This document shows positions 25,014 to 42,188 of a stretch of 64,000 nt of DNA, one piece after another. The translations under genes were made by a program, and so were the position numbers. Below the pieces are notes generated by a model. The model worked only from the letters and a program-made list of their open reading frames with translations. It was not told the origin of the DNA and searched no databases. Each line of letters starts with the position of its first letter. Positions within the stretch are counted from its first letter, which is position 1. Source of the DNA: a bacterium (lineage in GTDB: Bacteria > Patescibacteriota > Saccharimonadia > CAILAD01 > JADZBC01); NCBI GenBank assembly GCA_020852295.1, contig JADZBC010000009.1, positions 7,081-71,080 of the forward strand, written 5' to 3'.

Positions 25014-25397
25014 TTACTTGAATTGCCCCAGAGTAAAGTTGACGATTGCGTAGGCCAGTATAGCAATAATAAGCCCTATTACCGCGTAGACGATCGTGTC
25101 TTTGGCGCCGGTGGTAGCCTTTTCGTTGCCAGCCGATAATACATATCGCAGAGCGCCAATGATGATCATGATAACCGATGCAACCCCCACTACAATAAGC
25201 AGGGTGTTGGTGATGGTGCGAATACTATCGAGCAAATTACTCGTGGCACCAGTGCCAGCAGCGCAGTCTGCACCACCCTGAATCGTATTGTCAGTGCAGG
25301 CAGCCGACGCTGGACTAGGTAATAAGCCAGGTAACAGCAAAGCTAGCTGGATTGATCCAGCTAGCAGTTGGTTACTTACTTTTTGCTTTGCAGCCAC
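25014..25397 (-). CDS. VirB2/TrbC-like pilin-family protein, paralog 6 of 6.
   Basis: Signal peptide, Cys-containing variable segment, and shared C-terminal module TNTLLIVVGVASVIMIIIGALRYVLSAGNEKATTGAKDTIVYAVIGLIIAILAYAIVNF (TM, short polar loop, TM). Confidence 0.6.
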   Translation of the reverse strand: MAAKQKVSNQLLAGSIQLALLLPGLLPSPASAACTDNTIQGGADCAAGTGATSNLLDSIRTITNTLLIVVGVASVIMIIIGALRYVLSAGNEKATTGAKDTIVYAVIGLIIAILAYAIVNFTLGQFK

Positions 25398-25399
25398 CC

Positions 25400-25816
25400 C
25401 TACACCGCCGGCGTTTGGGTAAACTGCCCAAGGACAAAGTTAACAGCAGCGTAAGCTACGAGACACACGATAATACCGATGATGGCATATACGATAGTGT
25501 CCTTCGCGCCCGTAACGGCCTTTTCGTTACCTTGAGAGAACACATAGCGGAATCCTCCGATGATCAACATCAGAACCGCAACAATACCGACACCCAAAAT
25601 AAGAGTGTTTGTGATTACACGAATATTGAGCAGCAAATCTGTGGATGCACCAGTCGGCTTAATTTTGTTCAGTCCGCCCGGGTCATCTGGATTTAGGGCA
25701 CTTGGTACTGTTACATTTGGTTGCGTCCCGGGGGCGTCAACTGCCAAAGCGCGACTAGCAGCCATCGTGAAGTAGGCTCCGGCAACTGCTGGCACACTTT
25801 TTAATACGTTTCTCAT
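25400..25816 (-). CDS. VirB2/TrbC-like pilin-family protein, paralog 5 of 6.
   Basis: Same C-terminal module (VITNTLILGVGIVAVLMLIIGGFRYVFSQGNEKAVTGAKDTIVYAIIGIIVCLVAYAAVNF). Confidence 0.6.
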   Translation of the reverse strand: MRNVLKSVPAVAGAYFTMAASRALAVDAPGTQPNVTVPSALNPDDPGGLNKIKPTGASTDLLLNIRVITNTLILGVGIVAVLMLIIGGFRYVFSQGNEKAVTGAKDTIVYAIIGIIVCLVAYAAVNFVLGQFTQTPAV

Positions 25817-25899
25817 CTGATAATTTCTCCTTGGTATTGTGATATTAATATAATTCTTGACCTGATTGTAGACTATTTTTTTGAGCGTGACAATTATAT

Positions 25900-26187
25900 C
25901 TAGAGGCGGCCAATGATAAAGGTGACGATGGCATAGCCAAGTACTGCCAACACTACACCGACAACCGCATAGAGGATAGTATCCTTCGCTCGAGCCAGTT
26001 TGTTTTGATCACCCGCCGAGACCACATACATAAGGGCACCTACGATGATCATGATGACCGAGCCACTGCCAATGACAAAGATGATCGTATTAATGATAGT
26101 GGTAGCGAGATTACCTTGGGTCGTGAACGATTTGGCCGCTACGTCGGGTGGTACACTAACCACGATGTCTGAAAATATTTTTCCCAT
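25900..26187 (-). CDS. VirB2/TrbC-like pilin-family protein, paralog 4 of 6 (shortest, 95 aa).
   Basis: Module IINTIIFVIGSGSVIMIIVGALMYVVSAGDQNKLARAKDTILYAVVGVVLAVLGYAIVTF. Confidence 0.6.
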   Translation of the reverse strand: MGKIFSDIVVSVPPDVAAKSFTTQGNLATTIINTIIFVIGSGSVIMIIVGALMYVVSAGDQNKLARAKDTILYAVVGVVLAVLGYAIVTFIIGRL

Positions 26188-26192
26188 CGAAT

Positions 26193-26678
26193 TTAGTTGG
26201 CCTTTCCGATAACAAATGTGACGATAGAGTAGGCGAGAATGGCAACGATAAGACCGACAATCGAGTAAACAATTGCATCCTTGGCGACTCGCGTTCTGTT
26301 GGGATCACCCGCCGAGAACACATACAGCGCCGCGCCTATTAGTACGCCGATGACTGACACAACCCCGACGATCCAGCCAAGGAAGGTTATGACTCTTGAG
26401 ACAAGCTGGTTGACTGTAGAAGGAGTGGCACTACCCCCAAGCGATGAGGGTACCTTGGCGCCCGAGGCATTTGTTGGAGCTGGAGTAGGGGCGGGAGTAC
26501 GAGGAACCCCAACTACACATCTACCGTCTGGCTGAGCAGTCTTTCCGGTGCTTCCGTCGGGCAAGGTGCAAGGCAGGCCAATATCTTCAGGTGGCAATGC
26601 CGCCGATGCCATTCCCACGAAAGACAACGCTAGGCCCAATATGAGTATCGCCGATGTAAATAAATACTTTGGTTTCAC
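26193..26678 (-). CDS. VirB2/TrbC-like pilin-family protein, paralog 3 of 6, with a Pro/Thr-rich variable region.
   Basis: Signal peptide, Cys pair, PTPAPTNAS linker, then module VITFLGWIVGVVSVIGVLIGAALYVFSAGDPNRTRVAKDAIVYSIVGLIVAILAYSIVTF. Confidence 0.6.
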   Translation of the reverse strand: MKPKYLFTSAILILGLALSFVGMASAALPPEDIGLPCTLPDGSTGKTAQPDGRCVVGVPRTPAPTPAPTNASGAKVPSSLGGSATPSTVNQLVSRVITFLGWIVGVVSVIGVLIGAALYVFSAGDPNRTRVAKDAIVYSIVGLIVAILAYSIVTFVIGKAN

Positions 26679-26686
26679 ATCTTTAC

Positions 26687-26950
26687 CTATTTAAACTGCG
26701 TTACTACTACATTAACTATGAGATAGGCAGACATTGCGATTACAAGACCAGCAATAGACCAGGTAATCGCATTTTTCGCTTGGCGCAGCCTATCAGGTTG
26801 ACCAAATGAGGATGCGTACATAATGCCGCCAATAATAAGAAAAATTACCGATAGTACACCCACGAACCAAAAGGCGATAATCATAGCATTTGCAAGTATC
26901 TGCTTCGGCCCATCGAGCGAGAACAGGTCCACACCATTAAAGAGATTCAT
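26687..26950 (-). CDS. VirB2/TrbC-like pilin-family protein, paralog 2 of 6.
   Basis: Module ANAMIIAFWFVGVLSVIFLIIGGIMYASSFGQPDRLRQAKNAITWSIAGLVIAMSAYLIVNV. It overlaps the next gene by 1 nt. Confidence 0.55.
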   Translation of the reverse strand: MNLFNGVDLFSLDGPKQILANAMIIAFWFVGVLSVIFLIIGGIMYASSFGQPDRLRQAKNAITWSIAGLVIAMSAYLIVNVVVTQFK

Positions 26951-27339
26951 TAAAAGTTACCTCCGGCGATTATCAAGTTAAGAATAACCCTCATAGATAC
27001 AAGAACAAACAATCCTGTTATCGAGGTTACTATTCGTTTTTTCGCCGCCTTAATTCCGTCCGGTTGACCCGCAGAAGTAATGAGTTGGATTGAGCTGATA
27101 ATAATAACCAGGACAGCCACCCCGCCGATAAGCCCAGTTACCCAGTTGGCAATCCCGTTAATTAGCATGATTGTTGCGTTTTCGCCGCCCGCACCGCATA
27201 TCGCACTAAGCCCAGGTGTACCTACCGTCACGTTGCCGCATTGTGCCGCATGAGCCGGTGTGCCACTCATAGCAACGAGTAGTGCGCCAATCAGTGTTTG
27301 TAATATTCTACCTTTGAGATTTTCCTGTTGCGCATCCAT
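26950..27339 (-). CDS. VirB2/TrbC-like pilin-family protein, paralog 1 of 6, closest to the divergent VirB6-like operon.
   Basis: Signal peptide ...AMSGTPAHAAQC, Cys pair, then module MLINGIANWVTGLIGGVAVLVIIISSIQLITSAGQPDGIKAAKKRIVTSITGLFVLVSMRVILNL. Confidence 0.55.
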   Translation of the reverse strand: MDAQQENLKGRILQTLIGALLVAMSGTPAHAAQCGNVTVGTPGLSAICGAGGENATIMLINGIANWVTGLIGGVAVLVIIISSIQLITSAGQPDGIKAAKKRIVTSITGLFVLVSMRVILNLIIAGGNF

Positions 27340-27429
27340 ATAGGTATATTCTACGATTGTAAATCGGGCGAGTCAAAGTGAAGAGTTTCGATTGCCCGAA
27401 CACCATAAAAAGTTTATGATGAGTCTAAT

Positions 27430-30400
27430 ATGAGAGTGCGAGGGACAAAATATAGCAGGGCGCTATCGAGGATGCTTGGTCTGGCTGTATTTGTCATCGC
27501 CCTAACTGCTGTTTTCGGTATATTCAGCGCTCCCCGCGCCGAAGCTGCGATCAATAAGGACTGGGTCCAGCCAGCCTGGAGGGATGGGATTGGTGATAAT
27601 GGAACCGACGACGAAAGCAGGATACACTGTGGCTTCTTGTCCTCAGCACGCATCGTGTGCGAACAAAAGATTGGTGGGGTTTCGGGTGCGGATGACACGT
27701 TTGATTTTTGGTATGACCCAATAAACAGCAAGAAGTATGCATCTCTAGATGTTTTCCGATCAGATTCTGGACAGAACGCCGGAGATGGCGACCAGGGGTG
27801 GATCGTCTGTAGTATACAGGGAGGTTATGCCGAGGACACCTGCTACGCCCTCAAGGACCTGACTGATACAACCGCCCAAGGCTACACCTCTGGAAGACCC
27901 GTGACCGGGTGGAGCTACAAGGGTATTGACTTAGCCCCTTCAAAAGACTGGTCGATAGATAATGTCGGCGAGTTCGATAAAGATCCGGACTGGAAGGGGA
28001 TAGATACGGACGCCGATCGGGATAAGATATGTAACATAAAAATGTTTAGTGGCGATGCGCCGCCGCCAAGTACGTGCATTACGGGCTTCAATGGCACTAG
28101 GGACGTAGATATATCAGCACTGAGTAGTTTTGTTAGTGGATATCCTCAGTGGCGTGATGCCGATGCCCTCAAACGCGCCTGCGACAACGCCGTTGGGATA
28201 CTTAGTTTTATAATCTGCCCGATCATTGGCTATATGAACAACACGATAGTTGCCATGATTGGGAAAGAGAATCTACCTTCGGGAAGGCTAAATGGTAGTT
28301 TTCCGGCAGAAGGGCAAACGCCGTCTGAACCCAAGGGCTTACTCATTTCTCTTTTAGAAGTGCGTCCCCTACTAGCAAAGGTGAGTAGTGGAGGGGGTTC
28401 TTTCGGTGACGCCACTCCTGCCTCGGGATCTGCTGTTACCTCTGGTATCTGTGACGACGCAAGCGATCCAGGGGGCGCAGACACAGCCTACACCTGCTCC
28501 ATAAAAGTCATGTGGAACAACATGAAGAACATCACGCTCACGATCTTTATATTGATATTCTTAGTAATTATATTTGCTAACGTGGCTACGATAGGCATTG
28601 ACAATTACACAATTAAAAAGATGCTGCCCAGACTTGTTGCGGCGGCTATACTGATACAGTTTTCGCTACTTATAGTAAGCCTACTGGTAGATATCTTTAA
28701 TATCTTTGGTAAAACCGTATCGGGTCTTATCCTATCACTGGCGCCTGCGACATCTGTATGCTCGACTGTAGCTACTGGTCCCAGCGGCACAGGGGCCGGT
28801 AAGGTTGTGCTTGGAGCAGGATTGGGCGTTGGTGTAACAGCCCTTCTCGCTAGTCCTGTTGGAGGACCTATAGCGCTCGTTGGAGTCGTTGTGATAATCG
28901 TCCTTGTGGTTATGATCGCTATAGCCGCCATCGGTGCATTTATCGCCCTGCTTGCGAGACAGCTCATAATCTTCGCTCTCGTTCTTACGGCGCCTTTGGC
29001 TTTCGCTGCATGGATCCTACCGGGAACTGAAAAATACTTCAAGCTCTGGCGTGATAACCTTATTAAGTCACTCGCCATGTTCCCAATCGCAGTTTCTATG
29101 CTTGCTGCGGCAGTACTGTTTAGTACTACCGTTATTCAGGTAAGCGCTTGCGAGCAAGAATTTAGCCTGTCCACAATCATGGCTGCGCTCGTACCAATGG
29201 TAGCGCTGCTGATGCTGCCGAAGACTTTCAAATGGGGCGGCAACCTAACCTCGGCCATCGCGGGCGGCATCATGGGTGCAGCCGTAGCTCGATCAAAAGG
29301 GGTCGGTAGCGCTGCCTCCCGCTACGGCAAAAATCAAGTTAAGAAGGGTGCTTCGGGTCTAAAAAATGCAGCGCAAGACCGACTGAGCCAAACTGGTTTT
29401 GGTCAAAACACCAAGACCGGCCGCTTCTTGTCGGGCGGCGGACTGTTCGCTTCATATGCAGGCACTACCGGAAGCCGGCAGGCTGTAGCAGCGCGTAAAA
29501 ATGCCGCCCAGTCTGCGGCAGATAGAGAGGCAGCAAACCTACTTCGCCAAGCAAATAGTTTAGATGCCGATGCACGCAATACCAACCTCTCTGGAAGACG
29601 GCGAGCGGCGGCTGCAAGAGAACGAGACAGAATCCGCGAAAAGCTCTACGGCAGTAGCGCCACTCCTGCTATGCGGGCTGCTGCCCTAAACGCAGCGGCA
29701 AATGCAGGCGACCACCAAACATTAACAGCAATACATGGCGAATACAGTAGGCGGCGCAACGGCGCGCAGGAGTGGCAGGAAGCACTTAACTCTACCGGCT
29801 CACATGATGCAGTAGCGGCCACCATGCATGCCCATGCACAGACACTTGCACCCGGTAGTGCTGAGCGAAATAGCATCAACCAAATGCTTACCGGCGCGGG
29901 TGCTACACCTAAGCTGCGCGCAGCCGCGGTAAAGACCATGGCAGCAGCGGGCGATGGCGCTGGACTGGTTGCTGCGCATGAGAACACAGTACGTGCCGGC
30001 GGCCAACAGGCGTGGCTGGACGCTATTAATGCCAACCCTGGTTCAATGAAAGCTGTCGCTGATGCAGTATCTACCCACGCTTCTGGCATGACTGGGTCAA
30101 TTTATGCCGGCGCACCTGACTATAACCATGATAAAGCAGCCGCCCTGTCAGTCATAACAGGACAACAGGCAAGTCCGGCACTTCGTTCTGCAGCGTTAGG
30201 TACCCTTGCGAAGTCTGGCAATGAGGAAGGTATTGAGGCTGTTCGCCAAAGCATCCGCGCCGCGCACACAGACCGCACTACGGGCGTAGTAGACGAGGTT
30301 GCTGCTGGTCAAGAATGGGCGCGTGCGGTACAAGCAAATTATGGGGACTTCGACAAGGTTCCACACTTGCGACCATTTGCCGACGCCGAGCGCGCCGGTG

Positions 30401-31728
30401 AAGCAGCCAAGCTGACCGCCGGATCTTTTGCCGATGTGGCAGGGGGCGTAAAAAAGACACTTACTCGCCCAGAATTCTTAGAATCAACACTCTCGCCAAA
30501 AGTGATTACTGAGGCTACCGATGTGCAGCGCACCTCAATTCCGCAGGCAGCGAGGGAGAATATTGGACTTTGGGCTCACGGCGCAGCTAATGAAGTAGAC
30601 GCAAGCGGTCAGCCCGTAATGACGGCAGCTCGTCGGGCAGCTGAACTTAGGGCAGCCGGCCACCGAACTGAAGCGGATGCTGTTGAAGCCAGGGCGAATG
30701 AGTATAAGACTGTGCTAGACCGAAATGGCAACTGGACCGCACCAGCAGCCGGCGCACCCGCCGGCTCAGGCGGATCCTCATCCACAGGGACTGGCTCGTC
30801 TGGAGGCTCCACCACAATGCCACGCGGTGCTGCTGGTGGCCACACAGGAACCGTCAACGCAAGTGGGCTCTGGGTGCCTAATAGCACAGGAGGCTCTGCA
30901 CGATCAGGGTCTGGCCCATCTACGGGACCTACACCGCCTCCTGGAGGAGCACCACCGCCACCTCCTCCACCGACTGGCGGCCCCGGACCAAGCACACCGC
31001 CACCTACGGGACCTACACCGCCTCCTGGAGGAGCACCGCCGCCTCCTCCTCCAACCGCAAGCTTTGACCCACTTGGCTCAGACCTTGACCCGGGCTATGG
31101 GGCAAATAGGGAAGCTCAGTCTCGTATCTTGGCGGATATGGCGGCAGGCAAGAGCGCGAGCGAAGCAGCTGCAACACACCTAGATTCTGGCTCATCGCCA
31201 TTTGATATCGGCGAACTCCCTGGCTCCTCATTGCCAGCAGGTGAGAGAAGTGCCTGGACTCCTCCATCTGAGCGAGCAGCCGACTGGACCCCACCGACTC
31301 CACTGCCAGCCGAAACTCCAGCACCAACTAGTCCGATTGATGATTCCGTGCGATCCACCGCATCCTCAAGCAATACAACCACAGGCACAACTGTCCAGGG
31401 CTCCTCATCCGATGAATCTAGTGCGAGCAGCGGCAAGTCAGTCCCTACATCGTCAACTTCTGGTCGAGCAACTGGCAGCCGCGTCGACGCAGGCTCAAGT
31501 GTAGCAAGCGACTTGGCGCGCTATGATGCCGAAACACGAGCTCGTCAAGCGGCCGATCGTGCGAAAGAATCCGCCCGTGAAAGCTCTAAAGAAACTCGAA
31601 AGCTCATCGAGCGCACCGAAAAAAATAGACGTGAGGACATGAGAAGACTCGGCAACAGAATTGAGGGGGGCGGCGATACAGGTACAGAGGCAGAGGCTCC
31701 GCAAAACGACACAAGTAACGAAGAATAG
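27430..31728 (+). CDS. Giant VirB6/TrbL-like T4SS inner-membrane channel protein with an N-terminal secreted Cys-rich domain and a long Ala/Pro-rich disordered C-terminal tail.
   Basis: 1432 aa. Signal peptide, about 350 aa extracellular domain with many Cys, then 6-7 TM helices with a VirB6-like pattern (...ILIQFSLLIVSLLVDIFNIFG..., ...LLARQLIIFALVLTAPLAFAAWILPG...). After that come Ala-rich RAAAL repeats and PPPGGAPPPPPP tracts ending in a basic/acidic tail. Confidence 0.6.
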   Translation: MRVRGTKYSRALSRMLGLAVFVIALTAVFGIFSAPRAEAAINKDWVQPAWRDGIGDNGTDDESRIHCGFLSSARIVCEQKIGGVSGADDTFDFWYDPINSKKYASLDVFRSDSGQNAGDGDQGWIVCSIQGGYAEDTCYALKDLTDTTAQGYTSGRPVTGWSYKGIDLAPSKDWSIDNVGEFDKDPDWKGIDTDADRDKICNIKMFSGDAPPPSTCITGFNGTRDVDISALSSFVSGYPQWRDADALKRACDNAVGILSFIICPIIGYMNNTIVAMIGKENLPSGRLNGSFPAEGQTPSEPKGLLISLLEVRPLLAKVSSGGGSFGDATPASGSAVTSGICDDASDPGGADTAYTCSIKVMWNNMKNITLTIFILIFLVIIFANVATIGIDNYTIKKMLPRLVAAAILIQFSLLIVSLLVDIFNIFGKTVSGLILSLAPATSVCSTVATGPSGTGAGKVVLGAGLGVGVTALLASPVGGPIALVGVVVIIVLVVMIAIAAIGAFIALLARQLIIFALVLTAPLAFAAWILPGTEKYFKLWRDNLIKSLAMFPIAVSMLAAAVLFSTTVIQVSACEQEFSLSTIMAALVPMVALLMLPKTFKWGGNLTSAIAGGIMGAAVARSKGVGSAASRYGKNQVKKGASGLKNAAQDRLSQTGFGQNTKTGRFLSGGGLFASYAGTTGSRQAVAARKNAAQSAADREAANLLRQANSLDADARNTNLSGRRRAAAARERDRIREKLYGSSATPAMRAAALNAAANAGDHQTLTAIHGEYSRRRNGAQEWQEALNSTGSHDAVAATMHAHAQTLAPGSAERNSINQMLTGAGATPKLRAAAVKTMAAAGDGAGLVAAHENTVRAGGQQAWLDAINANPGSMKAVADAVSTHASGMTGSIYAGAPDYNHDKAAALSVITGQQASPALRSAALGTLAKSGNEEGIEAVRQSIRAAHTDRTTGVVDEVAAGQEWARAVQANYGDFDKVPHLRPFADAERAGEAAKLTAGSFADVAGGVKKTLTRPEFLESTLSPKVITEATDVQRTSIPQAARENIGLWAHGAANEVDASGQPVMTAARRAAELRAAGHRTEADAVEARANEYKTVLDRNGNWTAPAAGAPAGSGGSSSTGTGSSGGSTTMPRGAAGGHTGTVNASGLWVPNSTGGSARSGSGPSTGPTPPPGGAPPPPPPPTGGPGPSTPPPTGPTPPPGGAPPPPPPTASFDPLGSDLDPGYGANREAQSRILADMAAGKSASEAAATHLDSGSSPFDIGELPGSSLPAGERSAWTPPSERAADWTPPTPLPAETPAPTSPIDDSVRSTASSSNTTTGTTVQGSSSDESSASSGKSVPTSSTSGRATGSRVDAGSSVASDLARYDAETRARQAADRAKESARESSKETRKLIERTEKNRREDMRRLGNRIEGGGDTGTEAEAPQNDTSNEE
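30922..31051 (+). repeat. Imperfect direct repeat inside the VirB6-like gene: two 47-nt units with an 83-nt period, encoding GPTPPPGGAPPPPPP.
   Basis: acgggacctacaccgcctcctggaggagcaccRccgccRcctcctcc occurs at 30922-30968 and at 31005-31051. Confidence 0.7.
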
Positions 31729-31733
31729 TCACT

Positions 31734-32573
31734 ATGGGACAATATAAAGTACCACAAAACGTAGAAACCGAAGATAAGATCTTGGGTCCGCTGACGATCA
31801 AGCAGTTCATCTATGTGATCATTGCTCTAGCCTGGGGATTCATCATGTGGCGAATCTTCTCGGCGGCTATACCGATCGCAGTGCTTACCATTTTGCCGGT
31901 TAGTGGAGTGTTTTTAGCGCTCGGTCTCATCCAGCGAGAAGGACAAAGTTTTGAGAACTATTTTGTGGCAATGGTTCGTTACTTTTTCGTGCCGCGCATG
32001 CTGGTTTGGACCAAGGAGCCAGAAATGGTTCAGGCCATCAAGGCGCCAAAGAAGAAGGTCGACACCGGTCCAACTTATCGCCGTAGCCCTGACGAGATAC
32101 GTGGTGCACTCAAAAAACTAGCCACCGTTATCGATACACATGGCCAGTTTCAAAAAGGGGAGACGCTCCAGCTGGCGGATGACCAAAACGAAGCAGCCGA
32201 GATCAGTAAGCGCATCGCCGGGCCACAAAACCAGTCGCTTGAGCAGCATATCAACAACATGGCACAAGCAAGTGACGATATCCTTGATCCGAACAGCGCT
32301 CGCGCCGGCTCGGTCGGCAATTTGCTTCAAAATGTCGAACAAGACGTCCGTGCTCAAGCCAGGGCAACTATGGAAAAAGACCTCCTAAAGTCTGACCGAA
32401 AAACTGCCGACCTCATACCAACGAACGTGCAAGCTACTTCTCACACCCACGCCCAAGATGCTATACTCAAAATGGCTATGCAGAGCGGCGGCATATCTGT
32501 TTCACAGCTCGCCCAGCAAGCCAATCGCCACCTAACCCTTGAGGAGGGTAAGGCGGTCAAGATAGAGCAATAG
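31734..32573 (+). CDS. T4SS VirB3/PrgI-like small membrane protein (two TM helices) with a C-terminal soluble extension.
   Basis: Sits immediately upstream of VirB4. N-terminus ...EDKILGPLTIKQFIYVIIALAWGFIMW... followed by a second TM, the topology typical of VirB3/PrgI. The assignment rests on position and topology, not on a family match. Confidence 0.4.
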   Translation: MGQYKVPQNVETEDKILGPLTIKQFIYVIIALAWGFIMWRIFSAAIPIAVLTILPVSGVFLALGLIQREGQSFENYFVAMVRYFFVPRMLVWTKEPEMVQAIKAPKKKVDTGPTYRRSPDEIRGALKKLATVIDTHGQFQKGETLQLADDQNEAAEISKRIAGPQNQSLEQHINNMAQASDDILDPNSARAGSVGNLLQNVEQDVRAQARATMEKDLLKSDRKTADLIPTNVQATSHTHAQDAILKMAMQSGGISVSQLAQQANRHLTLEEGKAVKIEQ

Positions 32574-32613
32574 CCCTATCTAACCCGTGTGAATTATCAA
32601 GGAGAGTGGAGTT

Positions 32614-33531
32614 TTGCAGCCACAGGCCAATGCAAATCAAAATCCAGCTGCACCAGTCGCAGCTAATGCTGATCCTTCGGCAACACCGCCGAAAAAAGCA
32701 AAGGACCTGCGACAAAGTACGCAGAATCACTTACTGTTATCAGAAATACGTGATGGCATAGTGGTGATGCGCGATGGTAGCCTTCGCATGGTTATCATGG
32801 CTTCTGCGCTCAATTTCGACCTCAAAAGTCCCCAAGAACAAGATGCGATCGAAAGCTCGTATCAAGGATTTCTTAACGGTCTTCATTTCCCAATCCAAAT
32901 CCTAGTACGGTCTCGTCGAATGAACCTCGACAACTATCTGGCCGAGCTGGAGAGACTCCAAGGTGAACAAGAAAACCAACTCCTCGCTGGTCTCATGGAA
33001 GACTATATCTACAACATTCGCGGCCTCATTCAGGACATCAACATCATGGATAAGGAGTTTTACATCGTCGTACCTTATTACACGCTAGCGGTCACCAAGG
33101 AAGGTTTGGCCAGCAAGGTTCGTAAGGTATTTGAGGGTAATCGCGAGGTGAGCCAAACTGCTGAGACATTTGAGGCACACAAGCGAGATCTTATACAGCG
33201 CACCAACCTCGTTGCCCAGGGACTTGCACAAATGGGTGTTCGTGCGGCAGTACTGAATACCCAGGAGCTGATTGAGCTCTTTTACTCCGTCTACAACGAA
33301 GACGAATCACAGAGCCAGTCGCTCGTCGAAGTGGATGAACTTACGACCCCTATTGTAGAGCGAGGCAACGCAGCCCCAATGCCGGCCGGCCCGCCGCCGC
33401 CAGCACCGATCGAGCCAGATGACATGTATACTGCAGCTCAGCGTGAGGGTATTGGGGCACAAGCAACGGCTGCGCCACAAGCGGCCGATCCAAATGCCTA
33501 CCAGCAGCCACCACAAGGGGGGCAGCAGTAA
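32614..33531 (+). CDS. VirB4/TrbE-family N-terminal domain encoded as a separate ORF, with Q/P-rich termini.
   Basis: RMVIMASALNFDLKSPQEQDAIESSYQGFLNGLHFPIQILVRSRRMNLDNYL matches the conserved N-terminal region of VirB4/CagE/TrbE. It ends in a TAATG overlap with the next ORF. Confidence 0.6.
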   Translation: MQPQANANQNPAAPVAANADPSATPPKKAKDLRQSTQNHLLLSEIRDGIVVMRDGSLRMVIMASALNFDLKSPQEQDAIESSYQGFLNGLHFPIQILVRSRRMNLDNYLAELERLQGEQENQLLAGLMEDYIYNIRGLIQDINIMDKEFYIVVPYYTLAVTKEGLASKVRKVFEGNREVSQTAETFEAHKRDLIQRTNLVAQGLAQMGVRAAVLNTQELIELFYSVYNEDESQSQSLVEVDELTTPIVERGNAAPMPAGPPPPAPIEPDDMYTAAQREGIGAQATAAPQAADPNAYQQPPQGGQQ

Positions 33532-35426: not shown

Positions 35427-38400
35427 CCCTACGATGCCCAAGCCAACTGGCGGAAATAGGCCCAAACCAAACCCGCGACCCCAAGGTCAAACTGGTGGAA
35501 GCCAAAGTAGCGGATTTCGGCCAATGCAGAGTGAGCGTATGGGCCCGACAAAAAATGCCGCCAGGCAAGCCGGTGCACCGGTAGTAGACAAGGATCTAAA
35601 GGAGGGACTCCATGCCGAAACAAGGGCTGAGCGAGCTCAAGCTCGACAGGACCTTACAAAACGCGTTGAGCATGCTCGAGGTGGTGCTGCGGGTAAAGTA
35701 GCAGCAGCTAGGCAGGGTGGCACAAAAGAGGCTGCCGTTGAAGCTGGCAGGCAGGCGGCCGTAAAGGGATTTGAGAAGGGCGCCCAGTACGCGGCCGACG
35801 CCGCAACTGGTGGCGCAGCCGAAGCTGTAAGGCCAGTAATCAAGGCGGCCGCTAAGGCACTGGAATGGCTTTCGCGCAACAAGCGCTGGCTCAAGATCGG
35901 TGCGGTCCTGATATCGCCACTCATTTTCGTATTTCTATTAATCATATGGATTATTAGCGACCCTTTTGGATCAATTTCAAAAATTGGCTACACCGCGTTT
36001 AATGCCTTCAAAACTGCAGCTGGAGCAGCAATATCTGGTGCAGGATTTAGTGCCGAACTGACCATCAATGACCTCAATGAACAAATGAAGTCAGTGGCAG
36101 CAACCAATAGTGCAGGAATTATGCCGGAAGAGGGTACGATAGCATACAAACTCCTACAGATAGACGCAGAAAAAATTCAGACTAGCTCATACAATCCTGG
36201 AATACCCTTTAAGATTGAAACCAAAAAAATCAATGGTCCTGACGGAAGGTCGTATACCGTCATGGATAAGGTCGTAAATACAAACAGCGGATCGTCGATT
36301 AGCATTAAAGACGCCGCTAGCCCGACAGGCCCAATCGGCCAGAAAAACATTGTGGCCGCAGTATTGTCTCAGAAAATCCCAATCATGCAGTTTATGATCC
36401 GCCAGCCAGCGACGAGAAAATTAAACAAAGCACCAGACCTTGGGCTTGCGCTAAACTATGGCGAGAACAAAGATAATCAAAATGCAAATCTTAATCGGCC
36501 ATACGAAGAGCTTCAAAAGTTCCTAAAGGAAAAAACGTATAAACGCGTGCGTGGCTCCAGCATTACTCTGCCGACAGTAGGTGTTGTAGGTTCAGATGAG
36601 TCAAAATTAGTCACTCAAAAAATCGTCGATTCGATTAAAAAGGTTCAAGATGACATCGTAAAGGATTACGAGCCTTCGAAACTACAAATAGAGCTGCCAT
36701 ATGATCAATTTGGTCAAGAGCGCTTATCGCCAAAGCGAATAAGCAATACATTGTGTGCGTTCCAGGAAATTCTGCTGGATCCAAAGAATATTGCTAGTGC
36801 AGTAGAGAGTCGAGCAAATGCTGCTAGGCGTGATGGTGCAAAATTTATGACACTGAAAGACACTCATAATAAGGCAGCACTAGACACTAATGAGCTGAAG
36901 TTTAGTATTCAACAGATGGCTGACTACACAAAAAGTATGTCCTACCAGAGAATTGTATATGGCCGACTTTCGGGCGAGGCAGTTGATCCTGATGGGATTG
37001 GTCAGGCTGCTATGTCTATCACGCGAGAAAAGTATGACGCTAGCGCACAAACAATACTCCAAAATATGTCTGACACCTGCGGAACATTGCGCTACCTCGA
37101 CCAGCGAAGGGCCGATGAGGCTGCGGACGCGAGTGTCTGGTCGGATGAAAGTCCTAACAACTTTATCCGTACATACTATCGGGAAATCCGCACCGCAAAT
37201 GTTACTGTGCAGGATATACAGAGCTATTATGTTGAATATAGAGACAGTCCAACCTGCGATCCCCTGCGACCAAATAGTGACAGTAGTGATAAGGTTCGTT
37301 GTGCTGTTTATTCCTTTAGAATCGCAATCCTACGAAACTACTTCAACAAATTTCAGCAAGAGATATATCGTGGAAGCCAAAAATACTACACTAGCCCCGA
37401 GAAGGTAACACCCGAAGACATTACTACTCGACTTATTAAGATTGGCGCTGGGGTATCTACTACCGGCCTCGAGGATGGCAATCAAAATTTTTCACGAGCT
37501 ATACAGGGATTAAACCAGTTAAACTACGACTACAGTATGGTATACGGTGGTAGATTTTTGACAGATGCAGAAAATGACCAGAATGCAAAAGAGCTTGCCG
37601 AATTACGTGACTGGCAAACCAAAAACTACGGCATAGCATACCGGGTCTTTAATACCGATAATGTCAGTTCTATAGCTAGCCGGTTGATGCAGCACACCCC
37701 ACCTGAACCAAAACGCGCAATAGCCTGGATGTTCGGAAGTATATTGAAAGCGATAATTAACCCCATACGTACTTTTGCCACGATAGATGGTGCTGCCAAC
37801 TATGTGCTCAAAGGGGAACAAAATATTGCGATGGCCGCAGACCAAGCGGTTTACAATGATGCCCGATACAATAAAGCCAGTCCTGTCGGCTTCACTAAGC
37901 AGGAAACCTCAATCGACTGGAAAAACAATGCAAAGTTTATTGAGGCACTGAAGAAAAATAAAACGCAAGTAGTTGATCCTGACCCACTCGTAAATGGCGC
38001 AAAGGTTGACGCCAATACACTCTTTAGTAAATGGGACAACTGTTTCACCTCGAAGATTACATCGGAAATATATTTTGACGACAATTACCTAGCGGCGCTA
38101 AATTTTGGTGCCAATCTTCCCGAGATTCCTCAGCAAGAGAGAGATGAGTTTAAGCGTAAGTATGAACTCTTTAGTGGCTGTAAACCACTGCTGAGTAGTG
38201 CATCAAATAATATTAACTCGCTCCAAGTACAGTATCGCGTTTACCGTTTTCGATCTCTAGTATTGGACAGCCTAGTAACCCTGAGTAACGACGAGGAAGA
38301 TAAAAATCTCGACGCAAATGGCGACCAGGGTGCGACGCCCTCAACAAGCGCCGGGCCAGGGGGTCCAAGTGGTGTTAATGGACTTCAGAGCCCACCAAAC

Positions 38401-38904
38401 CTAGGAGCAGCAGATAGTCAGGGCTATTATCGTTTACCTCCATCCGCTGATGGCTCATACAGAACATATAGTACGCCTGGTGAGCAATGTGGTAGCCTTG
38501 CACTCATCCAAACACTCTATACAGTCTCGCAGGCCTGGAAGGCAAGATTTGGAGGCAATCTCTACATCGGAGACCTCAACGCCTCCGGCCACAAAAGTCA
38601 CCGCAACGGCGTAGATGTTGACCTTATTGCAATAGCGGGTGACGGCAGCCGGGCAGCCGACTACTCTCGCGGTGGTTATTCTAGAGATAAGACGATCGAA
38701 CTAGGAAAGATGTTCGTAGATACTGGTATCGTCACGGATATCGGATACCAAGATGGGCAGGCAGGGTCGGCTATTGATGCTTACTATAGGGAGAAGGGAC
38801 AGGGTAGTAGTGTGGTAAGGCCTTGGTCAGGGCACGATGACCACTTCCATGTGCGAATAAAGGATGAATTTAGAGGACCAAGGAGTGAGCGCTGTGCAAA
38901 CTAA
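35419..38904 (+). CDS. Giant membrane-anchored protein with a C-terminal LAS-type zinc peptidase domain similar to penicillin-insensitive murein endopeptidase MepA.
   Basis: 1161 aa. Basic disordered N-terminus, one TM (KIGAVLISPLIFVFLLIIWIISDPF), a long extracellular region, and a C-terminal NASGHKSHRNGVDVDL ... SGHDDHFHVRI (H..D ... HxH metal ligands as in MepA HQTGLDVDI / DDHFHVR). ATG overlaps the VirB4 stop (ATGGCTAG). Confidence 0.7.
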   Translation: MASPTMPKPTGGNRPKPNPRPQGQTGGSQSSGFRPMQSERMGPTKNAARQAGAPVVDKDLKEGLHAETRAERAQARQDLTKRVEHARGGAAGKVAAARQGGTKEAAVEAGRQAAVKGFEKGAQYAADAATGGAAEAVRPVIKAAAKALEWLSRNKRWLKIGAVLISPLIFVFLLIIWIISDPFGSISKIGYTAFNAFKTAAGAAISGAGFSAELTINDLNEQMKSVAATNSAGIMPEEGTIAYKLLQIDAEKIQTSSYNPGIPFKIETKKINGPDGRSYTVMDKVVNTNSGSSISIKDAASPTGPIGQKNIVAAVLSQKIPIMQFMIRQPATRKLNKAPDLGLALNYGENKDNQNANLNRPYEELQKFLKEKTYKRVRGSSITLPTVGVVGSDESKLVTQKIVDSIKKVQDDIVKDYEPSKLQIELPYDQFGQERLSPKRISNTLCAFQEILLDPKNIASAVESRANAARRDGAKFMTLKDTHNKAALDTNELKFSIQQMADYTKSMSYQRIVYGRLSGEAVDPDGIGQAAMSITREKYDASAQTILQNMSDTCGTLRYLDQRRADEAADASVWSDESPNNFIRTYYREIRTANVTVQDIQSYYVEYRDSPTCDPLRPNSDSSDKVRCAVYSFRIAILRNYFNKFQQEIYRGSQKYYTSPEKVTPEDITTRLIKIGAGVSTTGLEDGNQNFSRAIQGLNQLNYDYSMVYGGRFLTDAENDQNAKELAELRDWQTKNYGIAYRVFNTDNVSSIASRLMQHTPPEPKRAIAWMFGSILKAIINPIRTFATIDGAANYVLKGEQNIAMAADQAVYNDARYNKASPVGFTKQETSIDWKNNAKFIEALKKNKTQVVDPDPLVNGAKVDANTLFSKWDNCFTSKITSEIYFDDNYLAALNFGANLPEIPQQERDEFKRKYELFSGCKPLLSSASNNINSLQVQYRVYRFRSLVLDSLVTLSNDEEDKNLDANGDQGATPSTSAGPGGPSGVNGLQSPPNLGAADSQGYYRLPPSADGSYRTYSTPGEQCGSLALIQTLYTVSQAWKARFGGNLYIGDLNASGHKSHRNGVDVDLIAIAGDGSRAADYSRGGYSRDKTIELGKMFVDTGIVTDIGYQDGQAGSAIDAYYREKGQGSSVVRPWSGHDDHFHVRIKDEFRGPRSERCAN

Positions 38905-40906
38905 AAGTAAACTATTTTCTACCGCCAGTATTGCTGTTTTCATAATTTCTTTACTCCTGCAGCCCCTAAACACACTCGCCGCAAGTCCAGAACAGCGCAT
39001 TAATATCGAGCGTCGGCCCTGGTTTGACCCTACAGACATCGCCTGCACAAATACAACCGCTCCAGGCACAAACCAGTCTACAGTACAGCCGGGTCCAATA
39101 TATATCGTCGGCGACTCAGTGATGGATGGTGCAAAATCTAAGGTCGAGCCAACTATTACAGCAGCGGGTTGGCAGCCTAAATTCAACACTCTTGTATCGA
39201 GAAAGCTTAGCGGAACACCACCAAATCCTGATGGTTTTGGCGCTATTGCGCTTGATGGTGATTTTATAAAAACTGCAAAAGCTGTTGTGATCGAGCTTGG
39301 CACTAACCCTTCATCGGAATTCAGTAAAAAAGTACCTGAGTTTGTACAAGCAATAAAACAGCTAAATTCAGCCGTAACTATCTACTGGATTGATACGGCG
39401 AGCCCCGGTAGATCGGATTTTCAAAACCACATCAAAAACGCCAATACCGCTATCTATAACAACTCGACATCTTCGGGTTATAAAGTAATATCTTGGTTTA
39501 AGAAAGTGTTTGGAGATTCTTCTGATCCTCTCAACCCATCATCCACCGCACCAGACACCGGTAAGCTTATTTCGACAGCCGATGGGCTCAACGTTCACCC
39601 TACTGACGCAGGGAAGCAAGCAATGGCTGATATTGTGTTGCAGAATATCGGAGGACAAACTCCGGCACAAGCCGCCATTGCAATGAACACTCGAACCAAG
39701 GCGATTATCGACAGTCAGCTAAAAATACTAGCTGCTGACACCGGTCAGGCCAACACAGCACCAATTGCAGTCCCAGAACCATACGCCTCAATTTTCCCAA
39801 AGGCCGCTGCTCGACACGGCACAGACCCGATATTTCTCGCTACAATTTTTCTCGCTGAGCACGGCGGAGGATTCCCTAATCCGCCACCGCCATACGGTAC
39901 AGGTGGCCGCTGGGCAACGTCAAACAAGGGTGCTAATGGTCCATTTCAGTTTCTCGTGAGTACTTGGGCGGGTAAAAAACAAGATGCCGACAGAATGACT
40001 GTCAAGAAATTCAACTCGAACGAAACAATCGAGGTTGGTGGAGATGGTACAACAGACATTCAGGATCTAGCCGACGCCGCCTTTGGTGCAGCGCAATACC
40101 TTGCCGAGGCAGGTGGAAAAGTGGGGACCCCACTTGGTGATACCGTTAACCCTATGGCCGAGAACACACTTACCTCCGCTATGGTTGCATACAATGCAGG
40201 TGGTGGAAATCTTAACAAATGGAGGAGATGCGGAACCTCGCTGTCCTGTATCGGTGCAGCCGAGACTAGGAAATATGTAACAAATGGAGTGAACTACTAC
40301 CAGCGTCTTGGTGGACAGCTAAACGTTGATCCGGGTGCCACCACTACAAATCAAACCTGTAGCGATGGCTCGAGCACAACTCCTGGCGGCGGGCTCGGTG
40401 TATCTGCTGATGGCTTTGTATTTCCATTGAAAACCACTAAAGCAGTTATCCGGCAAGGAGCAGATGGCGCCGTATGGTGTATACAGGCCCAGAATAATTG
40501 CCACCATGATTACAATGCGGCGGACATTCATGCGCCAACCGGAACGATTGTAGTTGCTGCGAGAGGTGGGACTGTCTTAAGTACGAGAACTGAGGTTAAT
40601 TATGAAAACGGCAATACGCTCCGCATACAGGGTGATGATGGACTTTGGTATTATTACGCACATATGGGGGATGGGACACTGAAGGTGAAAAAGGGCGATA
40701 AGGTGACTGCAGGCCAAGAACTAGGAGCAGTAGGAACTTCAGCAGATGCTCAGGGAACGGCACCACACCTACACTTCGATATTGCAGACCACGAAAATGG
40801 CTTCTCCCGAGGACGTGGCGGTGCATGCGGATTCGAGTGCCAAAACTACCTCATCAATCCACAGCCTGTATTAATTGCAGCATTTGCTAAGTTACCGGAG
40901 AACTAG
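38894..40906 (+). CDS. Secreted tri-domain peptidoglycan hydrolase: SGNH/GDSL esterase, lytic transglycosylase (SLT) and M23 (LytM) endopeptidase.
   Basis: Signal peptide; IYIVGDSVMDG (GDS motif block I); SLT motifs AEHGGG...GANGPFQF...AYNAGGGN; M23 motifs HHDYNAADIHAPTGT...HLHFD. Start set to GTG 38894, which lies 8 nt after AGGAG. The track ATG at 38864 lies inside the upstream gene. Confidence 0.75.
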   Translation: MQTKSKLFSTASIAVFIISLLLQPLNTLAASPEQRINIERRPWFDPTDIACTNTTAPGTNQSTVQPGPIYIVGDSVMDGAKSKVEPTITAAGWQPKFNTLVSRKLSGTPPNPDGFGAIALDGDFIKTAKAVVIELGTNPSSEFSKKVPEFVQAIKQLNSAVTIYWIDTASPGRSDFQNHIKNANTAIYNNSTSSGYKVISWFKKVFGDSSDPLNPSSTAPDTGKLISTADGLNVHPTDAGKQAMADIVLQNIGGQTPAQAAIAMNTRTKAIIDSQLKILAADTGQANTAPIAVPEPYASIFPKAAARHGTDPIFLATIFLAEHGGGFPNPPPPYGTGGRWATSNKGANGPFQFLVSTWAGKKQDADRMTVKKFNSNETIEVGGDGTTDIQDLADAAFGAAQYLAEAGGKVGTPLGDTVNPMAENTLTSAMVAYNAGGGNLNKWRRCGTSLSCIGAAETRKYVTNGVNYYQRLGGQLNVDPGATTTNQTCSDGSSTTPGGGLGVSADGFVFPLKTTKAVIRQGADGAVWCIQAQNNCHHDYNAADIHAPTGTIVVAARGGTVLSTRTEVNYENGNTLRIQGDDGLWYYYAHMGDGTLKVKKGDKVTAGQELGAVGTSADAQGTAPHLHFDIADHENGFSRGRGGACGFECQNYLINPQPVLIAAFAKLPEN

Positions 40907-40907
40907 T

Positions 40908-42188
40908 ATGAACCAACAACAAGAACGCAGGAAGCTAATCATTTATACCGTCCTTACAGTCGCTGCGATCCTCGCGATTTACTGGATTATCCAATTTCTT
41001 ACAACTGGTGAACTTAAAGTCACAACAAGCAATAAATCAGCGGAAATAAACATCATTGACCCCGCCACCGGCAAAGTAAGTCAATTTGTGGGCAAAGGCA
41101 GCGGGAGTATCCGCCTCAAGCCTGGTACCTATACAGTTGAGGCAAAACTAGATGACCGGATAACGCGAACTGGATTCGAAATAGTGACATCTAAGACAAC
41201 AAGTAAGAATTTACAGATTACAGACATTAAGTCTCCTAATCAGTTTTTGTACTACTCAGCAAGTCATCTTCATGCTAAAGATAACATACTCTATTTTAGA
41301 AACGATTCTACCAGGGAGTTTAATAAATTCAACTCTTCTGAATCAGAGCCAACCGTAGTCGAGGAGAGTTTACCAGAGATAAGCACAATCCACTGGGCTA
41401 CTGGGGGCAACCTCGCGCTGCTTGAGACATCAGATAATATTTTTTATTACTTCGAGGATGGAAAAATCCGAGTAGTAGATATAAGTGCACCTAATGGCTT
41501 GCTCTATCCGGACAGCAGCAAACCAGACGAAGCCGAAGAAAGTGACGTTAATAGCCAGATTCTACATGCACAGGTGAATGAACTTGGGGCATTTGCCTTC
41601 ATTGAAGAAGGAAAAGTTTTTTACAAACCAAGCCTGGCGGAGAAGGCTAAGCTTGTTACGAATAGGCAGCTACTGAGCGATTCTATACTCGAACTTTCTA
41701 ACAAAGGGTTAATAGCTTTAGTAACATACGAATCACTGGGGCAGGAAAATATCACTTCTAAGGACATCTCAAAGCGAGCAATAGAAATATACAATTCTAA
41801 GAACAACGAAAAAACAACCTTGTCGACAAAGGAAATTCCTGGATTTATGAGTTGGTCACCTGGCGGCGATAAGTTGGTCTATTCAGACGGACAAAACATC
41901 ATGCTTTACAACGATAACGATAAGTCAACCAAAATTGCCTTAGGTAATCGTGGGGAGCTCTCTACATTCATAAGTTGGATCAACGATGATACTATGATTT
42001 TTCCAGACAAAACTAGCCTATGGAAGTACGAGGTTGCTAGCAACACAACAACTAAGATAGCAAATATCCCTGCCGGTATGCTTGTTCAATCTCTCGGTGT
42101 CGATAGCAACGAAAAAACAGTTTTTCTTAGCACTAAGCCAAACTCTCGGTTCGACGCCTTCGGCAATGTCTACCGACTCGATCTCTAG
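40908..42188 (+). CDS. Membrane-anchored beta-propeller-like protein (TolB/WD40-like repeats). It is AT-rich.
   Basis: N-terminal TM (LIIYTVLTVAAILAIYWIIQF) and repeated motifs IHWATGGNLALLETSDN, WSPGGDKLVYSDGQNIMLYN, TFISWINDDTMIF typical of propeller blades. ATG 40908 chosen 1 nt after the upstream stop. Confidence 0.5.
   Translation: MNQQQERRKLIIYTVLTVAAILAIYWIIQFLTTGELKVTTSNKSAEINIIDPATGKVSQFVGKGSGSIRLKPGTYTVEAKLDDRITRTGFEIVTSKTTSKNLQITDIKSPNQFLYYSASHLHAKDNILYFRNDSTREFNKFNSSESEPTVVEESLPEISTIHWATGGNLALLETSDNIFYYFEDGKIRVVDISAPNGLLYPDSSKPDEAEESDVNSQILHAQVNELGAFAFIEEGKVFYKPSLAEKAKLVTNRQLLSDSILELSNKGLIALVTYESLGQENITSKDISKRAIEIYNSKNNEKTTLSTKEIPGFMSWSPGGDKLVYSDGQNIMLYNDNDKSTKIALGNRGELSTFISWINDDTMIFPDKTSLWKYEVASNTTTKIANIPAGMLVQSLGVDSNEKTVFLSTKPNSRFDAFGNVYRLDL

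Follow-up and report, generated by a model that had tools for sequence, protein, structure and literature searches.

Wang et al. in 2023 described an "apparent" type IV secretion system (T4SS), SEML1_0006-0019, in Candidatus Southlakia epibionticum ML1 that resembles Gram-positive conjugative T4SSs (PMC10633639). It is the closest described counterpart of the gene cluster analyzed here, which occupies positions 25014-42188 of a 64-kb stretch of contig JADZBC010000009.1 (the window; coordinates refer to it unless another sequence is named). The S. epibionticum system includes an essential series of pilins and lacks recognizable coupling and relaxase proteins, and transposon sequencing showed all of its genes except the NTF2-like SEML1_0012 to be essential for epibiotic growth (PMC10633639). 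Beside dnaA-dnaN-recF the order is six PF18895 pilins, TrbL/VirB6, PrgI, a 293-aa open reading frame (ORF), VirB4, a 1113-aa protein (SEML1_0007, with a Hedgehog/DD-peptidase domain annotated at residues 951-1105), and a lysozyme-lysozyme-cysteine-protease (PMC10633639). A phylum-wide analysis by Quinonero-Coronel et al. in 2025 described an MPF-FATA-related VirB4 clade with TrsD as the commonest partner, together with PrgI, VirB6, arrays of VirB2 genes, rare relaxases, distant VirD4-like genes, peptidase and lysozyme genes placed downstream of virB4, and a location close to dnaA (PMC12102498). A 2025 review repeats this composition and speculates on a conduit for uptake from the host (PMC12857230).

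Sequence comparisons identify the organism as a Saccharibacterium, a member of an epibiont lineage. The locus is almost certainly a vertically inherited, origin-proximal T4SS of the Patescibacteria type in a Saccharimonadia bacterium, and it appears to derive from monoderm conjugation machinery (MPF-FATA class, CD1110/TrsD subtype) that has lost its role in plasmid transfer. By homology, the locus encodes the VirB6/VirB3/VirB4 parts of a membrane translocon, pilins of the VirB2 type, and wall hydrolases predicted to lie outside the cytoplasm. The VirB4 falls in the Patescibacteria clade by profile score and identity, a TrsD-like ORF lies upstream of virB4, PrgI, a VirB6-like protein (a weak match), and a pilin array are present, the locus is near dnaA, and the window holds no relaxase or coupling protein near virB4. 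The locus is thus not new. It is a typical instance of a described T4SS family with minor local variants, which are a single giant VirB6, the hydrolase domain set, and a propeller accessory. An earlier reading of the window made from its letters (the sequence-only reading) had called the composition poorly characterized, a statement that does not hold because the composition, pilin arrays, TrsD, lack of relaxases, and dnaA proximity are all published (PMC12102498, PMC12857230). Its divergent layout is identical to the ORF map, which confirmed 13/13 ORFs of the cluster, six pilin ORFs on the minus strand (25014-27339) and seven apparatus ORFs on the plus strand (27430-42188) (Table 1).

Table 1. 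Features of the T4SS cluster with window coordinates, strand, and the evidence behind each assignment
Feature	Length	Coordinates	Strand	Evidence
VirB2-like T4SS pilin 1	127 aa	25014..25397	-	PF18895 37.8 bits (cut-off 26.6); signal/leader region, transmembrane segments 65-83 and 101-119
VirB2-like pilin 2	138 aa	25400..25816	-	PF18895 37.3 bits; 50% identity to pilin 1
VirB2-like pilin 3, short leader	95 aa	25900..26187	-	PF18895 26.5 bits (cut-off 26.6)
VirB2-like pilin 4, long Pro-rich pro-region	161 aa	26193..26678	-	PF18895 38.2 bits
VirB2-like pilin 5	87 aa	26687..26950	-	PF18895 45.4 bits
VirB2-like pilin 6, first in pilin operon	129 aa	26950..27339	-	PF18895 48.4 bits
Divergent intergenic region between pilin and apparatus operons	90 bp	27340..27429		
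Extended VirB6-like polytopic membrane protein	1432 aa	27430..31728	+	Pfam matches of orthologues; AlphaFold2/Foldseek; weak NCBIfam match
PrgI/VirB3-like membrane protein	279 aa	31734..32573	+	PF12666 52.5 bits (cut-off 27); transmembrane segments at 16-66
TrsD-like protein, detached N-terminal VirB4 segment	305 aa	32614..33531	+	NCBIfam TrsD E 3.8e-6; VirB4 N-terminal profile positions
VirB4 ATPase	631 aa	33531..35426	+	NCBIfam conju_CD1110 372.5 bits (cut-off 325); Pfam P-loop_TraG, AAA_10, DUF87
Bitopic LAS-peptidase protein	1161 aa	35419..38904	+	PF03411 (M74) 35.4 bits (cut-off 25)
Tri-domain cell-wall hydrolase, secreted or anchored	670 aa from GTG	38894..40906	+	M23 70.5 bits; longest ORF from 38864
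Membrane-anchored beta-propeller accessory	426 aa from ATG	40908..42188	+	AlphaFold2 and Foldseek; longest ORF from 40875

The distribution of the locus was examined with VirB4 and with the whole gene order. VirB4 has more than 8000 homologue clusters; among the matches listed, identities are 74-100% and the named ones are all Saccharibacteria. A scan of GTDB species genomes yielded 80 loci. About 45 Saccharimonadia species share the same order, from a solute-binding protein (SBP) through pilins, VirB6-like protein, PrgI, TrsD-like protein, VirB4, LAS protein, and hydrolase to recF-dnaN-dnaA, and Levybacteria have a reduced form with pilins-TrsD-VirB4 beside dnaN-dnaA. Within Saccharimonadia, identities are 64-82% for VirB4 and 40-67% for TrsD in the cytoplasmic motor, and 26-38% for the VirB6-like protein, 23-45% for the LAS protein, and 26-53% for the hydrolase among the exposed parts. 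Judged by these values, divergence is much faster among the surface parts than in the motor, and the hydrolase swaps domains as well. The identical synteny with the replication origin (oriC) across a class argues for vertical inheritance.

The flanks of the cluster consist of housekeeping genes. An SBP and a ComF-like gene lie on the pilin side, and a DciA-like ORF, recF, dnaN, and dnaA lie on the other, followed past dnaA by rnpA, yidD, yidC, jag, and mnmE. The recF-dnaN-dnaA series begins 256 bp after the T4SS cluster. DnaA-box-like 9-mers (one mismatch to TTATCCACA) flank dnaA in two clusters (44697-44928 and 46364-46424), and the minimum of the cumulative GC skew is at 42-44 kb. The oriC probably lies at the box clusters that flank dnaA, and these clusters and the skew minimum would place the end of the apparatus operon ~2.5 kb from it.

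An ordinary conjugative element, either an integrative and conjugative element (ICE) or a plasmid remnant whose relaxase, VirD4, or integrase genes lie just outside the window, would share much with this locus. All components descend from monoderm conjugation genes, the nearest plasmid-borne VirB4s, from Bacillota and Actinomycetota, have 30-40% identity, and VirD4-like genes can lie far from virB4 in Patescibacteria (PMC12102498). The genomic setting is difficult to reconcile with such an element: the flanks are housekeeping genes (comF-like, SBP, recF, dnaN, dnaA, rnpA, yidC, mnmE) with no integrase or repeats, the class-wide identical synteny with oriC implies vertical inheritance, and GC content across the cluster (0.44-0.57) shows no clear contrast with the surroundings. 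Relaxases number only 109 across the phylum, and no more than 15/109 are near virB4 (PMC12102498). A Pfam scan found no VirD4/coupling protein, relaxase, VirB11, or integrase domains in any ORF scanned across the window, in agreement with the sequence-only reading. Its wider phrase, no conjugation components, stands for the 64 kb covered and does not extend beyond them, where VirD4-like genes often occur in Patescibacteria. A conjugative element was rejected on genomic context and synteny, and we regard it as very improbable.

The best-supported component is VirB4, which passed its family cut-off (Table 1) and matched the VirB4 C-terminal domain structure PDB 4AG5 (E 5e-52) as well as TrwK. 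The gene is genuinely split into a TrsD-like piece and an ATPase, as had been proposed from the sequence. The 305-aa ORF covers positions 102-233 of VirB4_plasma (894 positions) and 11-79 of the CD1110 VirB4 model (752 positions), whereas the match of the 631-aa ORF starts only at position 292 of VirB4_plasma and position 178 of the CD1110 model. The two ORFs are complementary pieces of VirB4 and not duplicates, because their profile positions are complementary and they have no mutual similarity in hhalign; a paralogous copy of the 631-aa N-terminus was rejected (hhalign probability 0.1). They meet at TAATG with a 1-nt overlap. Syntenic orthologues of the TrsD-like protein occur in ~70 loci, and in Patescibacteria bacterium SMAG_U9442 (locus L068, 1659-3977) a TrsD-like segment and VirB4 are fused in frame in a single 772-aa ORF. 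The 305-aa ORF scores 26.9 bits with the NCBIfam TrsD model, far under its cut-off of 200, and gave no match in a Pfam scan. A profile of its family searched against PDB sequences gave chance or low-complexity matches only, with no link to the solved VirB4 N-terminal domain.

The PrgI/VirB3 assignment is solid by its Pfam score, as the sequence-only reading had it, and the protein carries a ~190-aa C-terminal extension. The 1432-aa protein upstream is less straightforward. It has a signal peptide, a ~200-aa Cys-containing ectodomain, a transmembrane core at ~250-600, and a ~830-aa tail of Ala-rich ARM/HEAT-like repeats with a Pro-rich stretch, as judged from a transmembrane map and the sequence, and this architecture matches an extended VirB6. 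Three individually weak signals converge on a VirB6-like identity, which is supported only indirectly. Pfam TrbL/VirB6 was found in 11/33 syntenic orthologues (best E 4.6e-5). For an AlphaFold2 model of residues 220-620, each of the eight best Foldseek matches in the PDB is a chain of the stalk that TrwJ/VirB5 and TrwI/VirB6 form in R388 (E 0.04-1.4, TM-score 0.35-0.47, probability up to 1.0). The NCBIfam model MMCAP2_0566, a Mycoplasma ICE conjugal transfer protein, matched weakly (E 0.002). Against the assignment stand the weakness of each signal (Foldseek E at least 0.04, pLDDT 62) and a Pfam scan of the window protein itself, which gave no match. The giant VirB6-like protein of the sequence-only reading thus gains backing from its orthologues and from the R388 stalk and none from Pfam directly. 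A word-indexed homologue search with the core returned 10 matches, and the family profile searched against PDB sequences produced chance or low-complexity matches only.

All six minus-strand ORFs match the PF18895 T4SS_pilin family, five above the gathering score and one 0.1 bit under it, and the six pilins of the earlier reading are thereby borne out. Pilin 3, the one below the cut-off, aligns with the other five across the entire hairpin. Pairwise identities are 24-50%, and the common core is a VirB2-type hairpin of two transmembrane segments preceded by variable leaders. Published VirB2 arrays in Patescibacteria have 2-11 genes, whose identities average 25% and reach 54% at most (PMC12102498). 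Pilin 6 also scores 30.3 bits with the NCBIfam model Mbov_0395, a pilin-like conjugal transfer protein, below its cut-off of 40. Weak NCBIfam matches to a Mycoplasma ICE module were seen for the pilin, the VirB6-like protein, and the TrsD piece (Mbov_0395, MMCAP2_0566, and the VirB4 Mbov_0397, respectively), a hint that small pilin-like proteins may already be part of some MPF-FATA systems.

The remaining three plus-strand genes code for predicted extracytoplasmic proteins, and profile scores, motifs, and models bear out the domain assignments of the sequence-only reading for all of them. The 1161-aa protein begins with a Pro/Gly/Gln-rich cytoplasmic N-terminus and crosses the membrane once (160-178); outside, it has a large conserved ectodomain and, at the C-terminus, a LAS zinc peptidase domain. 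Its MepA-type endopeptidase passes the M74 cut-off, and the LAS motifs, GHKSHRNGVDVD and HDDHFH (H-x6-D, HxH), are intact. Among 21 orthologues, VanY was found in 14 and M74 in three. The tri-domain hydrolase has an N-terminal anchor or signal sequence followed by three domains, of which the first is SGNH esterase-like (~70-250), the second SLT/lysozyme-like (~300-470), and the third M23 (~530-640). The M23 assignment is strong, with matches to M23 structures in the PDB down to E 2e-9, and a PHLHF motif is present in the protein. Scores for SLT (19.1 bits) and DUF459/GDSL (24.6/19.2 bits) are all under the Pfam cut-offs, and both assignments are backed by motifs (GDS73, GTN136, AEHG, GPFQF, AYNAGGGN) and by orthologue domains. 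Orthologues carry Phage_lysozyme2 (13/24), GDSL_2 (12/24), M23 (11/24), CHAP (5), Amidase_2 (4), and SLT_2 (4). The hydrolase slot is modular, with phage-tail lysozyme, GDSL, M23, CHAP, amidase_2, SLT_2, and glucosaminidase domains in varying combinations across species.

In the product of the last gene, an N-terminal transmembrane helix is combined with a beta-sandwich of the PEGA/CarboxypepD_reg-like kind and with a beta-propeller of seven blades. The AlphaFold2 model (pLDDT 90.7, pTM 0.88) gave 1346 Foldseek matches in the PDB at E<=0.001, all propellers, with Lp49 (an Ig-like domain plus a propeller) at the top. The family profile matched WD40 (1.4e-19) and TolB (1.6e-8) sequences in the PDB, and a Pfam scan of the 437-aa longest ORF gave no match. 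A word-indexed search with the protein returned itself only, and an exhaustive HMMER search yielded 251 family representatives in a global library. The family stands directly after the hydrolase in only four other loci.

The sequence-only reading had taken the hydrolases as unusually heavy and as a sign that the wall of another cell is breached. This argument is weak, since the conjugative T4SSs of monoderms as a rule include membrane-anchored hydrolases with several domains. PrgK of pCF10, for example, has LytM, SLT, and CHAP domains and is required for passage through the thick wall of the donor itself (PMC11323569). The sequence gives no distinction between the wall of the epibiont and that of the host as the target. 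A tandem pair of FemAB-family genes and a gene for a VanW/PG_binding_4 protein (6896-8898 and 49883-51685, both on the minus strand) suggest that the cell's own wall is of the Gram-positive type and has interpeptide bridges, which is relevant to what the T4SS's M23 and LAS peptidases could cleave there.

Hydrolases that serve only to remodel the cell's own wall would also suit a role in adhesion, in which the pilins form an attachment fiber, tips or subunits vary by host, and nothing is translocated. Conjugative pili are mainly attachment organelles, pilin arrays with identities of 24-50% resemble the antigenic or host-range variation of Bartonella and Anaplasma (PMC12102498), and in Gram-positive T4SSs the wall on which the multidomain hydrolases act is that of the donor (PMC11323569, PMC12857230). 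Saccharibacteria, however, already have type IV pili for adhesion and motility, and a full, essential VirB6/VirB3/VirB4 translocon with a VirB4 conserved at 64-82% goes beyond the expected needs of a simple adhesin. We consider adhesion with own-wall remodeling only to be rather improbable.

The plus-strand genes are packed in an operon-like manner. With the most plausible starts, the junctions are, in order, a 5-nt gap, a 40-nt gap, overlaps of 1, 8, and 11 nt, and a 1-nt gap; the start codons chosen for these junctions include GTG 38894, which has an AAGGAG site upstream, and ATG 40908. Overlap is therefore not uniform, and of the 1-11-nt overlaps that the sequence-only reading had described, the tight packing is retained and overlap throughout is not. 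In the divergent intergenic region, the best sigma-70-like match is on the minus strand (27376-27348, 10/12), and another is on the plus strand (27392-27420, 9/12), both by consensus only. Promoter and terminator consensus scans gave matches no more numerous than in shuffled sequence, so the operon structure rests on gene spacing. Rfam and tRNA scans gave no match within the T4SS cluster.

A host-interaction role is the natural reading of this locus because the lineage is epibiotic and the orthologous locus is essential in S. epibionticum. In the mechanism that we favor, three products of the plus-strand operon, namely the extended VirB6-like protein, PrgI/VirB3, and the two-piece VirB4, would together form a translocon in the cytoplasmic membrane. 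Following the R388 model, VirB4 would pull the six VirB2-like pilins out of the membrane and polymerize them, with VirB6 as the platform. Local opening of peptidoglycan by the LAS peptidase protein and the SGNH-SLT-M23 hydrolase would let the apparatus and pilus through the wall, and the anchored beta-propeller would serve as an envelope-binding accessory. The assembled pilus or channel would then contact the host bacterium and form the conduit that epibiotic growth requires, with uptake of host cytoplasmic macromolecules, and of nucleic acids as a nucleotide source, favored over the export of effectors. We give this explanation as a whole, including the host-directed conduit and the leaning toward import, a probability of roughly 0.6. 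A non-conjugative, host-directed role taken separately is likely. The sequence-only reading had proposed a non-conjugative host-interaction machine, which is reasonable given the context, the synteny, and the epibiont lineage, and which as an idea repeats published speculation.

The leaning toward import draws on three lines of evidence. Among T4SS relatives, the only ones known to function with a minimal VirB2/(3)/4/6-type core and without a coupling protein or relaxase are DNA importers, namely the archaeal Ced system (PMC9905601) and ComB of Helicobacter pylori, the latter according to work cited in PMC11665869. Patescibacteria lack nucleotide synthesis, yet comEC is dispensable in S. epibionticum (PMC11665869). 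A 2026 preprint reports that a Patescibacterium acquires host RNA and has envelope-penetrating tubules, which according to its authors may be T4SS pili.

Several points weigh against this explanation. The direction of transport is one that we purely infer, and import in preference to export is tentative, somewhat short of even odds. The function of the T4SS family has been called "completely unknown" (PMC11665869), and Wang et al. favored delivery of protein or DNA (PMC10633639). VirD4-like genes are commonly distant from virB4 in Patescibacteria (PMC12102498), and one may lie elsewhere in this genome. The T4SS cluster has no candidate for a separate VirB8-like ORF (NTF2 fold; compare PrgL/TraM). 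The hydrolase lacks the canonical HxxxD motif of M23, the clade having a non-canonical H-x6-D as the first metal-binding motif, and the LytM domain of PrgK is catalytically inactive (PMC11323569). In the manner of PrgK, the hydrolases may act solely on the epibiont's own wall.

Export of effectors would use the same parts in the opposite direction, with the apparatus injecting epibiont proteins (or DNA) into the host for manipulation or nutrient leakage. Most characterized non-conjugative T4SSs export effectors, the model of Wang et al. is one of "DNA or protein delivery" (PMC10633639), a PNAS perspective mentions speculation on effector delivery (PMC11665869), and the system is essential in co-culture. 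The coupling protein, the usual substrate receptor, is absent at the locus, however, and the distant type IV coupling protein (T4CP) homologue in S. epibionticum is non-essential (PMC12102498). We saw no candidate genes for effectors or chaperones within the cluster, and exporters without a T4CP, such as Ptl and the Brucella VirB system, are exceptional (PMC12102498). We therefore consider effector export unlikely and retain the host-directed conduit with a leaning toward uptake.

A more specific form of that conduit can be considered, in which the fast-evolving hydrolase, LAS, and PEGA-propeller module is aimed at the host envelope and sets host range, and the translocon runs in reverse, in the manner of Ced and ComB, to import host RNA or DNA. 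We hold this to be doubtful. If it is true, the pilin-bearing, relaxase-less module that also occurs in Pontibacillus (below) would represent an older, unrecognized class of non-conjugative monoderm T4SS and would not be a Patescibacterial invention.

For no T4SS other than the family to which this locus belongs is essentiality to the bearer known. The family is near-universal in a lineage that accounts for much of bacterial diversity, and among the candidate means by which epibiotic Patescibacteria draw on their hosts it is the foremost. The value of the window, which comes from an uncultivated metagenome-assembled genome, is modest and comparative, and it consists of the genuine split of VirB4, the modular wall-hydrolase slot, the recurrent beta-propeller accessory, and the homologous module in Bacillota.

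Neighboring genes add several observations. Upstream of recF, a 90-aa DciA-like ORF (42185-42457, minus strand; PF05258 27 bits, cut-off 24) is convergent with the propeller gene, and their 3' ends overlap by 4 nt; DciA is a family of replicative helicase loaders. A third small cluster of three DnaA boxes lies at 14366-14455 near tRNA-Ser genes. On the pilin side, the last pilin gene is followed 31 nt downstream, on the same strand, by an orphan SBP_bac_1 gene (23645-24982, minus strand). Its product has a membrane anchor at the N-terminus. The gene may share a transcript with the pilins, and neither a permease nor an ATPase gene adjoins it. Its position is kept in ~15 related Saccharimonadia loci (36-51% identity), and S. 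epibionticum has Hsp20 there. Two genes past the pilin array, a ComF-like protein (phosphoribosyltransferase plus double zinc ribbon) is encoded at 22430-23233 on the minus strand, and S. epibionticum likewise has comFC just past its pilin array (SEML1_0021).

Two further regions of the window are set apart from these. Within a genuine tRNA cluster at 14.5-18.4 kb, ARAGORN made three tRNA-like calls (16850-17356, plus strand) for Gly(acc), Thr(ggt), and a four-base anticodon "tcca". The calls did not reach the Rfam gathering score, overlap a 122-aa minus-strand ORF, and may be degenerate tRNAs or false positives. A low-GC block on the plus strand (55335-62891; 0.41-0.44 versus ~0.50 elsewhere) has surface-glycan pathway genes, which code for an epimerase, an ABC-2 permease and ATPase (Wzm/Wzt-like), a methyltransferase, a GT4, a GT11 (fucosyltransferase-like), and two GT2 proteins, and may have been horizontally acquired.

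We compared the locus with monoderm conjugation systems, with a homologous module in Bacillota, with DNA importers, and with S. epibionticum. Like the monoderm MPF-FATA systems (pCF10 Prg/Pcf, pGO1 Trs, and Clostridioides difficile CTn2/CD1110), it has a CD1110-family VirB4, TrsD, PrgI/VirB3, VirB6, and a membrane-anchored multidomain peptidoglycan hydrolase (a VirB1 analogue; compare the LytM-SLT-CHAP protein PrgK), and it has no outer-membrane core. Unlike them, the window has no T4CP, relaxase, or PrgB-type adhesin, and no VirB8-like protein was found in the cluster. It has instead a six-gene pilin array, and the system is chromosomal, origin-proximal, and vertically inherited. The plasmid of Embleya, a conjugative actinobacterial relative (locus L082), carries a VirB6-like protein, PrgI, VirB4, T4CP, a relaxation protein, and NlpC/P60, and the T4CP and relaxation protein follow virB4 where the window has the peptidase protein. 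On the same plasmid, a 349-aa ORF annotated as PrgI (10365-11414) also matches the TrsD hidden Markov model (HMM; E 2e-13), which suggests a VirB3-TrsD fusion.

A homologous module was found on an 898-kb replicon of the non-mobilizable type in Pontibacillus sp. ALD_SL1 (NZ_CP062975.1, locus L081, 7477-17030). The order is the same and consists of two pilin-like ORFs, a 779-aa ORF, a PrgI-like ORF, a TrsD-like ORF (HMM E 3e-55), a CD1110-type VirB4 (38% identity), and a 1050-aa M23 "DD-metalloendopeptidase". The 779-aa ORF was not recognized by a VirB6 HMM built here, and there is no T4CP or relaxase within 12 kb of the module. Unlike the window locus, this module occurs in a free-living member of Bacillota, lies away from oriC beside flagellar genes, and has two pilins only. 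Because this replicon carries one, the pilin-bearing, relaxase-less module is not confined to Patescibacteria. The module bears on the published suggestion that, among monoderms, Patescibacteria alone have such pilins and that these were co-opted from diderm systems (PMC12102498).

Archaeal Ced (CedA/CedA1/CedA2/CedB; PMC9905601) and H. pylori ComB are comparable in how they work. Both combine a VirB6-like protein, small VirB2/3-like pilins, and a VirB4-like ATPase, and both are, like the window locus, chromosomal and without a coupling protein or relaxase; their transport is inward. The window VirB4 matches the CedB model weakly (E 2e-10, 39.9 bits versus a cut-off of 700), and because it belongs to the CD1110 family, the window system lies outside the Ced and ComB families. 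ComB, unlike the window system, has outer-membrane components, and Ced has no peptidoglycan hydrolases because archaea have no murein.

The comparison with S. epibionticum used published tables and domain content. The window differs in having one 1432-aa VirB6-like protein, where S. epibionticum has two large polytopic proteins (0011 and 0013) split by an NTF2-like ORF (VirB8 fold). The window hydrolase is SGNH-SLT-M23, whereas that of S. epibionticum has two lysozyme domains and a cysteine protease. The slot before recF holds the PEGA-propeller protein in the window and prealbumin/PEGA proteins in S. epibionticum, and the pilins are followed by an orphan solute-binding protein in the former and by Hsp20 in the latter. 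The locus otherwise corresponds gene by gene to the T4SS of S. epibionticum ML1 (SEML1_0004-0019; the matched stretch is SEML1_0003-0019). The two share the absence of a relaxase or T4CP at the locus, the recF-dnaN-dnaA neighbor, six divergent pilins, a VirB6-like protein, PrgI, a ~300-aa TrsD-like ORF abutting a ~620-aa VirB4, a ~1100-aa DD/LAS peptidase protein, and a multidomain hydrolase.

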